This document shows positions 15,001 through 21,000 of a stretch of DNA of 46,314 nucleotides, one piece after another. Made by a program: the position numbers. Numbering within the stretch: the stretch's first letter is position 1; every line of letters begins with the position of its first letter. This DNA is from a virus (Duplodnaviria > Heunggongvirae > Uroviricota > Caudoviricetes), in the IMG/VR virus record IMGVR_UViG_2880361019_000007. One strand, 5' to 3'.

Positions 15001-18000
15001 TCCCTAATAATGCGGGGATCCTGCTGGTACCATGCTGTCGTGGTGGTTCGGCATTCACCCAGGGCTCGGAGGGGACATTCAGCGAGTCCACGGGGGCCAG
15101 TCAGGATTCGGCTCGCTGGGGAGTGGGTAAGCCGTTATATCAGGATCTGCTTTTCCGCACGAAGGCAGCATTGCAGAAAAACCCGAAAAACGTTTTGCTG
15201 GCGATATGCTGGATGCAGGGGGAATTCGATATGACGAATGCCAGTTACGCCCAGCAGCCAGCAGCATTTCTTGCAATGGTACAGCAGTTCCGTGCTGACC
15301 TTGCCGGGCTGGCGGCGCAGTGTCACGGTGGAAGTCCGGCATCAGTCCCCTGGATTTGTGGCGACACGACATACGCGTGGAAACAAGAACACGGTACGCA
15401 ATATGAAGTGGTATATGGTGCATATAAAGGTAAAGAATCCCAGCAGATTTATTTTGTTCCCTTTATGACCGATGGTAGCGGAGTTAATACACCGACAAAC
15501 AACCCGTCAGAAGATCCTGATATTGTCGGGTCTGGTTATTACGGTTCGGCATCCCGAACGAACAAAAACTGGGTATCATCAAATCGCCCGACGCATTTCA
15601 GCTCATGGGCGCGTCGTGGCATTATTCCCGATCGTATGGCAACCGCTATTCTGAACGCAGCCGGGCGCACCTCAGCCTTCATCAGTGGTAAGGCACCGGA
15701 AATCAAACCCTCGCCCGGCGGCGACACGCCATCGGGTCCGTCTGCAGATACGTCCGTTCGCACAATCTCCCTGCTGCCGACAGCCGGAGAGGCTGCTGCG
15801 CAGGGCTGGACCATTAAGGACGGCGGAATTCAGTTGTCGGGTGGTGTATTTAAGATCGCCAAGCAGAGCAATAAAACCTGGTCCTTGACGCGCCCGGTGG
15901 ATGACGCAGTCTCCCTGCTGACACGGGGTGGCAGACTGAGCTGTAAGTTTCGACTGTCAGGCGCACTGACCAACAATCAGTTCGGTCTGGGAATTTATCT
16001 GTATACCGATGTAGCGTTACCTGACGTCGTGGCGATGACGGGTACCGGTAACCCGTTCCTGATGTCGTTCTTCACCCAGACCACAGACGGCAAACTGAAT
16101 CTGATGCATCACAGGAAAGCAGGAAACACAAAGTTGGGCGAGTTCGGGAATTACAGTAACGACTGGCAGACGCTGGAGCTGGTGTTCACCGCCGGCAGTG
16201 CCACGGTTACTCCGAAACTGAATGGAGTGGCTGGCCCGGCATTCCAGGTCATAAAAGACAGTCTGACACTGGGGCTGAATGCGCTGACGCTGACGGATAT
16301 TACCAAAAATGCAGCGTATGGCGTTGAGATAGAAAGTCTGGTGCTGGAGATAAATGCACCGGCATCATCATAAAAAGTGAGCCAGTCAAATGGAAGGTAT
16401 CGTTAAACTCACCGGTAGTGTCAGTGGGTCGTCTGAGATGCCTGCATGAGTTATCAGAGCCATCAGTACTTAACTGGTGGCTTTTTTTATTGTTGTCAGC
16501 TTCCGGATAACGGGAGACGGGGTATGTACCAGATGGAAAAAATCACAACAGGTGTGTCATACACCACGTCAGCGGTGGGAACGGGCTACTGGTTCCTGCA
16601 GTTGCTGGACAGGGTTTCCCCGTCTCAGTGGGCGGCAATAGGCGTGCTGGGAAGTCTGCTGTTTGGGCTGCTGACATATCTGACTAACCTGTATTTCAAA
16701 ATCAGAGAGGACCGGCGTAAGGCCGCCCGGGGAGAGTGAATAATGAACCATGAAGAAATGAATCAGCGCTTCAGTCGCCTGGAAAATGAAATTGCTGAAC
16801 TGAATAAAAAACTGTCGACGCTGATGCCTTCTGAAGATGAAAAAAAACGCCGCGATGAGCAGTTTGCTGCGTTTGACGATTATTGTCGGAAAGTGATGAG
16901 CAAAAATCTCGCAGAGTGTTTCAGTATTCATAATGATAATTTCAGTGAGCTGGAATGGGAGTGTAACCGGCCATCCTTTGTTGTATCCGGTGATGCCGGG
17001 AAAATAACCATCTCAGAAAATGGGAAAGTAACACCTCCATCGCACCAGCACAGTGAGGAGCTCATTGAATTTGCCATTGATTACCTGAAGAACAATAAAA
17101 AGCAGGGGCTGATGAAGCGCGTTGGCCGTTGCATGGGATATCTTCAGGTAGCCGCTGAGATTGAAGCGCTGGCCAGTGGTGCTGATAAGGATGCAATTGT
17201 GCGGGAGGCTCTTCTTCGTGATTTTAATACTCCACCCTTTAAAAAAGTGCCGGCTTACTGGCTTCATCCGGGGCTGACTTATCTTAAAGTGCGTATTTAG
17301 TGGGCCAGGGACAGCGGCTGAATATTTAATATATCCATGAACACCAAAATCAAATACGGCCTGTCGGCTGCCGTTCTGGCGCTGATTGCCGCTGGTGCGT
17401 CTGCGCCTGACATTCTCGACCAGTTTCTGGATGAAAAGGAAGGCAATCACACCACGGCATACCGTGATGGTGCAGGTATCTGGACCATCTGCCGTGGTGC
17501 CATCATGGTGGATGGCAAACCTGTCGTTCCGGGCATGAAGTTGTCGAAGGAAAAATGCGACCAGGTTAACGCCATTGAGCGTGATAAAGCGCTGGCGTGG
17601 GTGGAGAAAAACATCAAAGTGCCATTGAGCGAACCCCAGAAAGCGGGGATCGCGTCATTCTGTCCGTACAACATTGGTCCCGGTAAGTGTTTCCCGTCGA
17701 CGTTTTATAAACGAATTAATGCAGGTGATCGCAGGGGAGCGTGTGAGGCGATTCGCTGGTGGATTAAGGACGGTGGCAGAGACTGCCGTATTCGTTCAAA
17801 CAACTGCTACGGTCAGGTATCCCGTCGTGACCAGGAGAGCGCGCTGGCGTGCTGGGGTATCGACAGATAAGCAGAATATTTTGCTGAAAAATAAAGCATG
17901 GCCACGCGGGCGGATAACATGAAATCCTGCGAACTGGCGAAACGTAAGTGAATAAAAGTAAAAACCCCGTTTGTTGGCACCAAGCGGGGTTTTGTGTTTC

Positions 18001-21000
18001 CTGACTCCGGAAAAGTCAAAGGAGAAAGTGTGTTTGATTTTAGCAAACTGATTCGGGAGATTCGAGTGATGGCTGAAAAATTATCCACCTGGAAGTTCAT
18101 TCTTATCTGGCTGGTGTTTGTGATTATGGCCTCCGGTTATTTCATCGGTCAGATACGCTGGTGGTGAAATGAACCGCGTACTGTGCGTGGTCATCATTGC
18201 CCTGCTGGTGGCCTGTGGTGCGCTTAGTCTGGGGCTGAATCATTACCGTGATAACGCCATTACCTACAAAGCCCAGCGCGACAAAAATGTCAGAGAACTG
18301 AAGCTGGCGAACGCGGCAATTACTGACATGCAGATGCGTCAGCGTGATGTTGCTGCGCTCGATGCAAAATACACGAAGGAGTTAGCTGATGCGAAAGCTG
18401 AAAATGATGTTCTGCGTAATGATGTTGCCGTTGGTCGTCGTCGGTTGCACATCAAAGCAGTCTGTCAGTCAGTGCGTGAAGCCACCACCGCCTCCGGCGT
18501 GGATAATGCAGCCTCCCCCCGACTGGCAGACACCGCTGAACGGGATTATTTCACCCTCAGAGCGCGACTGATAATAATGCAAAAACAACTTGAAGGGGCA
18601 CAGCTATACATTCGAGAGCAATGCCTCAGATAAAAACCGGCCAAGGATAATCCGCTGAAGATTCGCCGGTGGCTAAAGTGTGCCAAGAGTTCAATTTACG
18701 CAATTACTCCAGTCGATGCTATGCACCGTCTTTGTGAAGTCAATGGATACCTGATTTATTTCTGTGCGCTGTATCGTCGCTGTACTCTTGCATTAATTAT
18801 GACTGTAGCCTGACGGGGAACTCCTTCTGCACAAGTGTGGGGGAATAATCAAAAACGATGCACACCGGGGTTACCGGGTACACATATTTCATCATGCCAG
18901 CGAGTCCGGTTCTGGCACGGAAGAAACCGGACGTTATGATTTAGTGCGGAAATATTTGTGTAGTGTTCTGAATGTTCTCAGTAAAGAGTAATGAATTATC
19001 AAAGGTATAGTAATACCTTTTGTTTTCGTGGATATTTGTAATCCATCTGAAAACCCCTGCTGTAGCAAGATTTTTCCTGTATTCGTAAAATGATAACTCT
19101 CCTGATTTGAATCCTTTTAAGGTGGCTTCTATAAGGCATTTATTTTTTGAAAATCTTACATTTACAACCTTACCCTGTCCTTTTATTAAAACCGTATTAT
19201 CGTTTTCAAGAACAAGATGAATATTCTCTGTGGCTAAATAGTAAATGTAATGTGAGACATTGTGACGTTTTAGTTCAGAATAAAACCAGTGATAGTTTAA
19301 ATTATTTCGCACTTTATCGAATATTTGTTTAAAAATGGCAACCTGAGCCATTGTAGTACCTTCCATGTGATATGAGGGGGCGTAGTCTGCACGATTATCT
19401 AAATTGCTTCAATCTGGTCTGACCTGTTTTCTGAGCAATTCAGTAATGTCACTCTTTTCTTTGTTTGCTTCAGGCGAAACTCTTTTTACTGAGCACAGTC
19501 TCCGGCGGCAGGCTTCAATGACCCAGGCTGAGAAATTCCCGGACCCTTTTTGAACAAGAGCGATGTTAATTTGTTCAATCATTTGGTTAGGAAAGCGGAT
19601 GTTGCGGGTTGTTGTTCTGCGGGTTCTGTTCTTCGTTGACATGAGGTTGCCCTGTATTCAGTGTCGCTGATTTGTATTGTCTGAAGTTGTTTTTACGTTA
19701 AGTTGATGCAGATCAATTAATACGATACCTGCGTCATAATTGATTATTTGACGTGGTTTGATGGCGTAGATGCACGTTGTGACATGTAGATGATAATTAT
19801 TATCATTTTCGTGGGTCCTTTCCGGCGATCCGACAGGTTACGGGGCGGCGACCTCGCGGGTTTTCGCTATTTATGAAAATTTTCCGGGATCCATGTCCGG
19901 TTTCTCTTCAAGTTAACTATATGAAAAATATAAAAACAGGTCTTCTGTGAACCGGACATGAACAAAAAACAGACATGTAAACCGGACATGACCGGTTTTG
20001 TTGTGATTGTGAGGTGAGAGTTTTTGCGAGGTGAGGAGTGGCTACGCAGACTGAAGTTGCCAGGCATTTAAGTCTGACCGATCGCCAGCTTCGCAGATTG
20101 CAGAAATTGCCGGGTGCCCCGATATCGAATAAGCGAGGGCAACTGGATCTGGATGCCTGGCGCGATTTTTACATATCGTATCTGAGGAGAAGTAAAAACG
20201 ATGTGCCTGATGGCGATAGCGAAGACGACTATGAGGAGAAATTGCTTATTGCCAGATGGGAACTGACAGCAGAACAGGCTGTTACACAGCAGTTAAAAAA
20301 TGAGGTGTCAAAAGGAAAACTTATTGACACCGGGTTCTGTATTTTTGCCCTCAGTAAGCTGGCAATGGCGTTATCCAGTACGCTTGATTCCATCCCTTTA
20401 TCCATGCAGCGACAGTTTCCTGATTTAACACCGCGCCATCTTGACCATCTGAAAACCCTTATTGCTAAGGGGGCAAATCAGTGTGCGCGGGCAGGGGATA
20501 AATTACCGGATTTGCTGGATGAATATATCAGAGCAACAACTGAATAATATGATGAGCGCTGTCACAACTGCATTACAGCCCCTGATAAGGGCATTGCCGG
20601 TGACGCCAGTTGAATGGGCTGATCAAAATTATTATCTGCCTAAAGAATCTTCATATGGTGAGGGCGAATGGAAAACGCTGCCATTCCAGATCGCCATCAT
20701 GAACAGCATGGGGAATGATCAGATCCGCACTGTTAATCTGATTAAATCTGCCCGTGTTGGCTATACAAAGATGTTGCTGGGGGTGGTCGGGTATTTTATT
20801 GAGCATAAATCCCGAAACAGTCTGCTTTTTCAGCCCACGGATTCTGCCGCTGAAGATTTTATGAAGTCTCACGTGGAGGCGACGATTCGGAACGTGCCAT
20901 GCCTGAAAGACCTTTCCCCATGGCTGGGTCGTAAACATCGTGACAATACTCTCACGCTGAAACGCTTTTCATCGGGCGTCGGTTTCTGGTGCCTGGGCGG

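Follow-up and report, generated by a model that had tools for sequence, protein, structure and literature searches.

A candidate sense/antisense cassette encoding a small membrane protein at the endolysin-spanin junction of a lambdoid prophage

The stretch of DNA analyzed here (the window) has 46,314 nucleotides (nt) and is IMG/VR virus record IMGVR_UViG_2880361019_000007 (Caudoviricetes). A short open reading frame (ORF), preceded by a hairpin, lies between its endolysin gene R and its i-spanin gene Rz. With moderate confidence, positions 17948-18167 are taken to be a portable cassette with sense and antisense parts, complete in itself, that was inserted between the endolysin and spanin genes and that follows a logic like that of type I toxin-antitoxin (TA) systems, or like that of phage antisense control such as P22 sar. 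The late (plus) strand encodes a 45-amino-acid (aa) inner-membrane protein. Its synthesis would be held down by three features: a weak GTG start, a terminator (hairpin 1), and a second hairpin that buries the Shine-Dalgarno (SD) sequence (hairpin 2). On the minus strand, codons 3-6 appear to hide an extended -10 promoter of the sigma-70 type, which is predicted to drive an RNA of about 78 nt. In the lysogen, the terminator and the antisense RNA would keep the membrane peptide off. After induction, Q-modified late transcription would pass the hairpin and outrun the antisense RNA, and the peptide would be made late and enter the inner membrane. An internal SD sequence and start at ATG14 may add a 32-aa isoform outside the cover of the antisense RNA. 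We infer from the sequence that the RNA is produced and represses the ORF, and that the membrane peptide is possibly harmful.

A promoter-shaped nucleotide constraint exists in the 5' codons of the ORF. Codons were tabulated from 31 distinct DNA sequences, and the proportion of synonymous differences (pS) was taken at codons with the same amino acid. Codon 3 is GAT (30 of 30), codon 4 always has T as its third base, codon 5 is AGC (31 of 31), and codon 6 is AAA (30 of 31). Codon 11 is TTG in all 27 cases of leucine, and codon 12 is the rare codon CGA in all 31. These two blocks have a pS of 0.019 (0 of 220 among 12 divergent representatives). The values are 0.49-0.56 for the spacer codons 7-9, 0.49-0.67 for codons 13-22, and 0.79-0.92 for the transmembrane (TM) codons. 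A scan of the minus strand gave one positionally conserved promoter-like site. TGCTAnnAT is found at the identical position in all 32 distinct sequences, including four homologues of approximately 35-50% identity that have different amino acids there. The -10 variants are TAAAAT (19), TAATAT (8), TAAGAT (4), and TAGAAT (1). No sequence departs from TG, -12T, -11A, or -7T; variation is limited to positions 3-4 of the -10, where sigma-70 tolerates it. Two other promoter candidates were rejected. The minus-strand site at 18152-18123, which a separate promoter scan had listed, is present in only 2 of the 31 sequences, and a plus-strand promoter in the A-rich flank of hairpin 1 misses the -7T in all members.

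The RNA predicted from this site would begin opposite the GTG (about 18031) and end at hairpin 1, and it would be able to pair in full with the leader, the SD sequence, and the start codon. In every member the predicted RNA folds with a single-stranded anti-SD 5' end, a stem-loop, an ARN-type A-rich linker, a terminator, and a U-tail. The linker corresponds to 17994-18002 on the minus strand, and it reads AGAAACAGAAAA (four ARN repeats) in most relatives. The best sub-threshold Rfam match was the rimP leader (minus strand 17951-18026, 24.7 bits against a threshold of 47, E = 0.67), and it is a similarity between terminators. Identity with AgvB, AsxR, or the Pas small RNAs (sRNAs) was ruled out, as those lie between Q or a moron and the holin gene, or between the esterase and holin genes, and not between R and Rz. 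PasB was likewise ruled out by its different sequence and its position at the tail I/J junction. Hfq-CRAC (cross-linking and analysis of cDNA) gave no EcOnc peak in the R-Rz gap of the E. coli Sakai prophages Sp3, Sp4, Sp10, and Sp15. This mapping is uninformative here because none of these four prophages carries the cassette. A 95-aa minus-strand ORF (17813-18100), annotated in phage CP-1639, was set aside, as it runs through the hairpin.

Hairpin 1 had been placed at 17965-17999 in the preliminary description of this DNA. It does exist, but those coordinates are slightly off, and the stem occupies 17961-17993. It has the features of an intrinsic (Rho-independent) terminator, namely a stem, T-tracts on both strands, and compensatory changes. 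It is bidirectional because an A-tract lies 5' and a T-tract lies 3' of the stem. The plus-strand fold is -18.9 kcal/mol (z = -2.8; 2 of 200 shuffles were equally stable) and is called terminator-like by the scan; the minus-strand fold is -15.6 kcal/mol. The pairing is kept in 94.7% of cells across 13 sequences, compared to 32-62% with slid partners, and double changes between AU and GC were found in 5 of 13 sequences in one set and in 12 of 26 in another. The sequence ATAAAAGC(G)AAAA on the 5' side is kept in all contexts, and homology between contexts starts there. Hairpin 1 is best read as the terminator of the putative cis-antisense sRNA, because this A-rich 5' flank is conserved, the ORF stands at a fixed distance, and codons 3-6 contain the conserved extended -10 element of the minus strand. 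Such a role would also explain why the hairpin travels with the ORF. It can still serve as a barrier to read-through on the late strand. An attenuator upstream of the ORF had also been suggested. Throttling of ORF expression from upstream is retained in the present reading. Being the terminator of R or an attenuator of Rz does not appear to be the hairpin's defining role, because hairpin and ORF also occur together among baseplate and tail genes and in TA islands.

The leader holds a second structure. In relatives, GGAG, GGGAG, or GAGGA is found 5-8 nt upstream of the start, and when leaders were folded individually the SD sequence was at least 60% paired in 20 of 24. The pairing of hairpin 2 is maintained by at least eight different inner-stem sequences. 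Pairs found elsewhere are UUCU-CCUUG/CAAGG-AGAA, UUCC-CGUUA/UAACG-GGAA, CCUG/CAGG, CUUCUG/CAGAAG, CCUAU/AUAGG, and GGCAG/CUGCC. With RNAalifold and a MAFFT alignment, the outer terminator stem was the only one recovered. Hairpin 2 was missed because indels misalign it, and it was therefore folded sequence by sequence. Hairpin 2, like hairpin 1, is conserved through compensatory changes.

The ORF is a real gene under purifying selection. It had been described as GTG-initiated, of about 45 aa, and with an SD sequence, and it is present in that form (45 codons; AGGAG at 18020-24). Loss of the frame in relatives would have refuted the preliminary description, but the frame is kept, and 11 orthologues from 11 genera all have 45 codons and no indels. 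They begin with GTG or TTG, and have a pS of 0.4-0.8, a proportion of nonsynonymous differences (pN) of 0.03-0.35, and an omega of approximately 0.05-0.27, for which the synonymous distance (dS) is saturated. Homologues were found in Escherichia, Salmonella, Citrobacter, Edwardsiella, Yersinia, Izhakiella, Sodalis, Brenneria, Symbiopectobacterium, Serratia, Providencia, Trabulsiella, and Dryocola. Hairpin and ORF are both conserved in 12 or more genera of Enterobacterales. When a profile was searched against 1.84 billion representative proteins, only 41 clusters matched; the family is therefore small and confined to enterobacterial phages. The ORF matches phrog_6632 (E = 1e-29), a PHROG without assigned function, and no Pfam or NCBIfam family matched the protein. 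The remark that a 60-aa ORF cut-off had missed it is only partly apt, as RefSeq/PGAP already calls it as WP_000459345.1, labeled a hypothetical protein. The ORF itself is thus already catalogued in RefSeq and PHROGs and is not new.

The single TM helix that had been proposed is borne out by a Kyte-Doolittle mean of 2.13 over residues 24-42 and by AlphaFold, which gives one continuous helix over residues 4-44 (pLDDT 87). Residues 1-22 are probably a cytoplasmic amphipathic N-terminal segment, followed by the TM helix (24-42) and an RWW end. A second start within the frame is also plausible. GGAG or GAGG stands 8-9 nt before an invariant ATG14 in 23 of 24 distinct sequences. The codon for Arg9 is only CGG or AGG and that for Glu10 only GAG, which puts GGAG 9 nt before ATG14. 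Initiation there would give a 32-aa isoform that is mostly TM helix, and natural stand-alone 32-aa versions do occur.

The cassette is a mobile unit. The hairpin, a leader of approximately 36 nt, and the ORF always co-occur, in about 215 bp. At least 871 of 5426 complete E. coli genomes hold the full cassette. A first scan of viral contigs gave 80 identical E. coli copies, and a rerun with a divergent query gave 80 divergent viral loci. In about four-fifths of the latter, the cassette lies between the endolysin and i-spanin genes. Its neighbors there belong to four holin families (PF04971, PF16080, PF16931, and PF05106), four endolysin families (PF00959, GH19, GH108, and phrog_873), and four spanin families (PF03245, DUF2514, phrog_1026, and phrog_214). 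The remaining 20% or so are located between a Gp138_N/Apex spike gene and a baseplate-wedge gene, or after Baseplate_J/DUF2612, a tail fibre, an LPD38 protein, or gpK. Distant homologues adjoin PrlF/YhaV, ParE, RelB/YafQ, and HicB modules (TA islands). Natural N-terminally truncated copies (L025, L027, L163) lack both the promoter and the hairpin. One metagenomic phage contig (L197, 2501-2860) has two full cassettes in tandem, and both include the hairpin, the leader, and the ORF.

The ORF stop had been said to lie 2 nt before the Rz ATG; one base (18168) separates TGA from the ATG at 18169. TGAaATG is found in 79 of 80 E. coli viral loci and TGAtATG in the other, and the junction TGAnATG is shared with three unrelated i-spanin families, PF03245, DUF2514, and phrog_214. 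The TGGTGGTGA at the junction may double as an SD-like sequence for Rz. The idea of a coupled small membrane protein thus holds as far as a genuine single-pass membrane protein gene that stops at the i-spanin start, but there is no obligate spanin linkage, as about 20% of copies are in contexts without a spanin. Because of its unrelated neighbor families and its copies in baseplate, tail, and TA-island contexts, the protein is not a dedicated spanin partner. A holin or antiholin would be expected to show homology to a holin family, or else a TM helix with a charged C-terminal tail, and there is no Pfam or NCBIfam match and only RWW after the TM helix. The proposed antiholin-like or spanin-accessory role is therefore unproven.

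An action of the peptide on lysis timing can be suggested tentatively, because about 80% of copies sit exactly at the endolysin/spanin junction and because the putative dual starts and the stem-loop resemble a holin design. This is the weakest step of the proposal. One elaboration, which we consider improbable, is a portable "lysis clock", a new family of phage-borne units built like type I TA systems. A constitutive antisense sRNA would block only the 45-aa isoform from GTG1 of a holin-like membrane peptide and the 32-aa isoform from ATG14 would escape. Late transcription that outruns the sRNA would shift the isoform ratio and trigger or tune membrane depolarization. If true, this would account for a cassette that works beside any holin, endolysin, or spanin family, and for its free exchange among phages of Enterobacterales, Shiga-toxin phages included.

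A number of points weigh against a sense/antisense cassette of type I TA-like logic. No sense-strand promoter was found in the cassette, where about 36 nt separate hairpin 1 from the start and homology begins approximately 10-15 nt before the hairpin. A type I toxin mRNA comes from its own promoter, and here the mRNA would come from the phage late operon, through a terminator. Strict membership in type I TA systems is therefore not established. The -35 hexamer of the minus-strand promoter is weak (3 of 6 matches to TTGACA), and the separate promoter scan did not list the site at 18037-18065. Frozen synonymous sites near a start can also reflect mRNA constraints. Hairpin 1 is here more stable on the plus strand than on the minus strand, and a fifth or so of the copies are outside lysis cassettes. 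Rfam gave no family at the cassette, either at E <= 1 (16-20 kb) or at the gathering score (whole window). Pfam, NCBIfam, and the literature gave nothing that supports or contradicts the model.

The explanation that survives best beside it, although unlikely, is that the minus-strand RNA is real but acts mainly in trans as an Hfq-type sRNA, like PasB, AgvB, and AsxR. The CU-rich anti-SD 5' end would then target host or other phage mRNAs in the lysogen, and the overlap with the ORF would be incidental or secondary. The layout of the predicted RNA is indeed the standard one of an Hfq sRNA, in that its 5' seed (UUCUCC) is single-stranded and an ARN-rich linker, a terminator, and a U-tail follow, and validated prophage sRNAs are found at equivalent positions opposite late operons. 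However, it is perfectly complementary to the start codon and SD sequence of an ORF that is always retained alongside and that is itself under strong purifying selection. No trans target emerged, although no search was aimed at one. The trans role and the cis antisense role are not mutually exclusive.

It is also possible, but quite unlikely, that there is no antisense RNA at all. Hairpin 1 would then be a terminator, attenuator, or 3' stabilizer after R, the ORF would encode a late lysis accessory protein, for example an antiholin or a spanin helper, with translation coupled to Rz, and mRNA structure or initiation would account for the frozen synonymous sites. On the plus strand the hairpin makes a good terminator, the TGAnATG junction occurs with three spanin families, most copies are in lysis cassettes, and small single-TM lysis factors such as Lcc6 exist elsewhere. 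Such an arrangement does not account for hairpin and ORF moving together into baseplate, tail, and TA-island contexts that have neither R nor Rz, or for a conserved A-rich 5' flank that has no plus-strand role. The constraint also falls in two blocks with a variable spacer, and the invariant bases are exactly the TG, -12T, -11A, and -7T of the minus strand.

An ordinary moron is very unlikely. The ORF would encode a membrane protein for superinfection exclusion or for blocking a receptor or entry (similar to HK97 gp15), with no link to lysis or toxicity. A moron, as Juhala et al. reportedly used the term in 2000, is extra DNA between adjacent genes that has its own promoter and terminator and is expressed from the prophage. 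The cassette is indeed an insertion between otherwise adjacent genes, as R and Rz have a lambda-type overlap in Sakai Sp3. It is a mobile small membrane protein gene at several late-operon junctions, tail regions included, and the R-Rz gap of other prophages holds variable arrays of small TM ORFs. Yet the predicted promoter and terminator of the cassette serve the minus-strand RNA and not the ORF, and the several layers of repression suggest a product that needs to stay off. Expression in the lysogen, which exclusion requires, is unlikely because there is no sense promoter and a terminator lies ahead of the ORF. An open frame that arose by chance, with function confined to the RNA elements, can be dismissed almost entirely, because, much as overlapping DNA signals explain a large part of the N-terminal "amino-acid" conservation, TM codons 23-43 are free at the DNA level (pS 0.8-0.9) yet remain hydrophobic, in frame, and of fixed length, and changes in codons 7-9 are almost all synonymous, first-position changes of leucine and arginine codons included.

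A sense/antisense cassette would matter in several ways. The literature on the peptide, on phrog_6632/WP_000459345.1, and on type I TA systems in prophage lysis cassettes yielded nothing relevant, and the architecture appears to be unreported. The cassette is common, and it sits within the lysis cassettes of Shiga toxin (Stx) phages that release the toxin. If the antisense RNA exists, a phage lysis region of one of the most thoroughly studied kinds contains a widespread sRNA and a hidden control of a late membrane protein. The design would be an unusual one for a type I TA system, with the antitoxin promoter in the first codons of the toxin and a bidirectional terminator in the toxin leader. 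The 45-aa protein is a candidate addition to the few lysis factors other than holin, endolysin, and spanin. There is also a lesson for method, as the N-terminal "protein conservation" is here largely DNA signal (promoter, internal SD sequence, and internal start).

The whole window is a lambdoid prophage, and the host prophage type is 21-like/Stx-type. Over this stretch, a prophage of E. coli O55:H7 DEC5D matches it at 100% identity. H-19B and many Stx1a, Stx2a, and Stx2c phages, which also have the cassette, match at 93-95%. The R to Rz gap is 298 nt. Features are listed in Table 1.

Table 1. Features of the cassette and of the neighboring lysis genes (positions in the window).
Feature	Position	Strand	Details
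A-rich plus-strand flank, U-tract UUUUUACUUUUAU of the minus-strand terminator	17948..17960	-	5' edge of cassette
Predicted cis-antisense sRNA	17952..18031	-	about 75-80 nt (about 78); ends inferred from promoter and terminator geometry
Hairpin 1, bidirectional intrinsic terminator	17961..17993	both	13-bp stem, 7-nt loop, then TTTTGTGTTT
T-tract of plus-strand terminator	17994..18002	+	3' part (UCCU) pairs with SD sequence
Hairpin 2, sequesters SD sequence	17999..18023	+	UCCU-GACU / AGUC-AA-AGGA
SD sequence AGGAG of 45-aa ORF	18020..18024	+	5-nt spacing to GTG
45-aa tail-anchored membrane protein gene	18030..18167	+	GTG start, TGA stop 18165-18167; phrog_6632, WP_000459345.1
Predicted extended -10 element TGCTAAAAT	18037..18045	-	codons 3-6
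Possible internal start	18055..18071	+	GGGAG 18055-59, 9 nt upstream of invariant ATG14 at 18069-71
-35-like hexamer TCGAAT	18060..18065	-	TCGCAA in most relatives; 17-nt spacer; codons 11-12
TGAaATG junction	18165..18171	+	ORF stop, one base, Rz start
S21-type pinholin	16527-16739		PF04971
185-aa ORF, function not assigned	16743-17300		phrog_1085, no Pfam match
Signal-arrest-release (SAR) endolysin R	17337..17870	+	PF00959, E = 2e-24; N-terminal hydrophobic SAR-like segment; outside cassette
Conserved 3' untranslated region module of R21-type endolysin genes	17871..17947	+	outside cassette
i-spanin Rz	18169..18633	+	PF03245, E = 6e-52
o-spanin Rz1, embedded in Rz	18389-18571	+	PF06085, E = 6e-20

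The 185-aa ORF sits between pinholin and endolysin, where other prophages have a YdfR-family gene or a shorter ORF. The module that follows R extends over approximately 80-90 nt, carries the GGATAACAnGAAATCC motif, and is more widespread than the cassette. It was found in 2007 of the 5426 complete E. coli genomes, compared to 871 that also hold the 45-aa ORF. It precedes an ant gene or insertion in Sakai Sp10 and was also seen in Salmonella. It is missing where the cassette follows other endolysins or spike genes, and the gaps there are 82-90 nt.

The R-Rz gap is a hotspot of variable arrays of small single-TM ORFs, with up to four in tandem. Such arrays are found in E. coli 4/1-1 (L108, 2100-2645), at L109 (2100-2500), and in Sakai Sp10 (L015, 5125-5271). 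The order of the four is an unannotated A-family variant with a TTG start, phrog_4906 (MSDKLIT...), phrog_1115, and phrog_4493 (...AIRWW), and the last joins Rz through TGAtATG. In O157:H7 (L004, 2722-2835), hairpins 1 and 2 are retained and the A ORF is replaced. A second small TM ORF, phrog_12997 (MSEKGA...), lies upstream of the A-family ORF both in a lysis cassette and in a baseplate region, which are unrelated contexts (E. fergusonii L009, 2736-2908; Dryocola L027, about 2395-2500). In L009 this ORF ends KWW-TGAtATG and is followed by an apparent remnant of a spanin start. In the Stx1 phage CP-1639 (L001, 2015-2800), the cassette and Rz are located only about 500 nt after stx1B, and no holin or endolysin gene is annotated between stx1B and the cassette.

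Other elements of the window were also noted. A terminator-like hairpin (16456-16484) is located directly upstream of S in the esterase-holin gap, the reported location of PasA/PasC-type prophage sRNAs. Downstream (18634-19642), a DUF1398 gene (18941-19366) and a ynfO-like gene (19409-19642) run on the minus strand toward Rz. No minus-strand terminator was listed by the scan between them and Rz, and their transcripts could extend antisense through Rz and the small ORF up to hairpin 1. Elsewhere in the window, Rfam matches at the gathering score were DicF, sok (of the hok/sok type I TA system), three tRNAs, STnc100, and STnc490, with coordinates 360-411 (minus strand), 6466-6637, 13383-13629, 13709-13898, 26151-26274, and 26862-26985. 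STnc490 is present in two identical copies, 711 nt apart.

Among known prophage sRNAs, PasB can be compared to the predicted RNA. This Hfq sRNA of 83 nt, validated by northern blot, is encoded opposite a prophage late operon (PMC8550237; PMC4104026; bioRxiv 10.64898/2026.05.13.724894). Both are RNAs of about 80 nt opposite the late operon, with a bidirectional terminator just after a late gene and a tiny plus-strand ORF over the 5' end. PasB differs in sequence and position, and it is experimentally validated whereas the cassette RNA is predicted. In E. coli E2348/69 (L190, 1462-1575) the PasB locus is between the genes for tail assembly protein I and gpJ, and a 22-codon plus-strand ORF (MKINVKELFLLLGQKNTNAAKL) overlaps its 5' end.

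Antisense control in phages is otherwise represented by P22 sar on ant and by lambda OOP on cII, which regulate immunity or early genes. Like these, the cassette would make a small phage RNA from a promoter in or next to the target leader, complementary to the ribosome-binding site. Unlike these, it is in the late/lysis region and the predicted RNA travels with its target. Holin genes can have a dual-start motif with an upstream stem-loop, as in lambda S107/S105 with its sdi structure and in S21 71/68. Likewise, the 45-aa gene encodes a small membrane protein, is part of a lysis cassette, and has a stem-loop over its SD sequence and two candidate in-frame starts, each with an SD sequence (GTG1 and ATG14). 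Its starts are 13 codons apart rather than 2-3, and it has one TM helix and no homology to holin families.

Besides holin, endolysin, and spanin, there are small inner-membrane proteins that act as accessory lysis factors and are either required for lysis or tune it. Mu gp25 releasin, P1 LydD/LydE, and P2 LysA are small single-TM examples, and P2 lysA sits between the endolysin and spanin genes. Lcc6 of Shewanella LambdaSo is another accessory single-TM lysis factor (bioRxiv 10.1101/2024.01.23.576932). Its TM helix is N-terminal and its gene is distant from the lysis genes, unlike the 45-aa protein, which has no sequence similarity to any of these factors.

The closest comparison is with the type I TA systems SymE/SymR, Ibs/Sib, ShoB/OhsC, Zor/Orz, and Hok/Sok (5'-overlapping antisense RNA). 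The cassette has no sequence or Rfam relation to known type I families. Besides the difference in the sense promoter given above, its predicted antitoxin promoter lies inside the putative toxin's own first codons. Like these systems, it has a small (<60 aa) hydrophobic, membrane-targeted ORF (45 aa, one helix) and a predicted short cis antisense RNA that covers the SD sequence and start and ends in an intrinsic terminator. It also has a heavily structured leader, and is a mobile, multi-copy, prophage-borne unit with distant members in TA islands.

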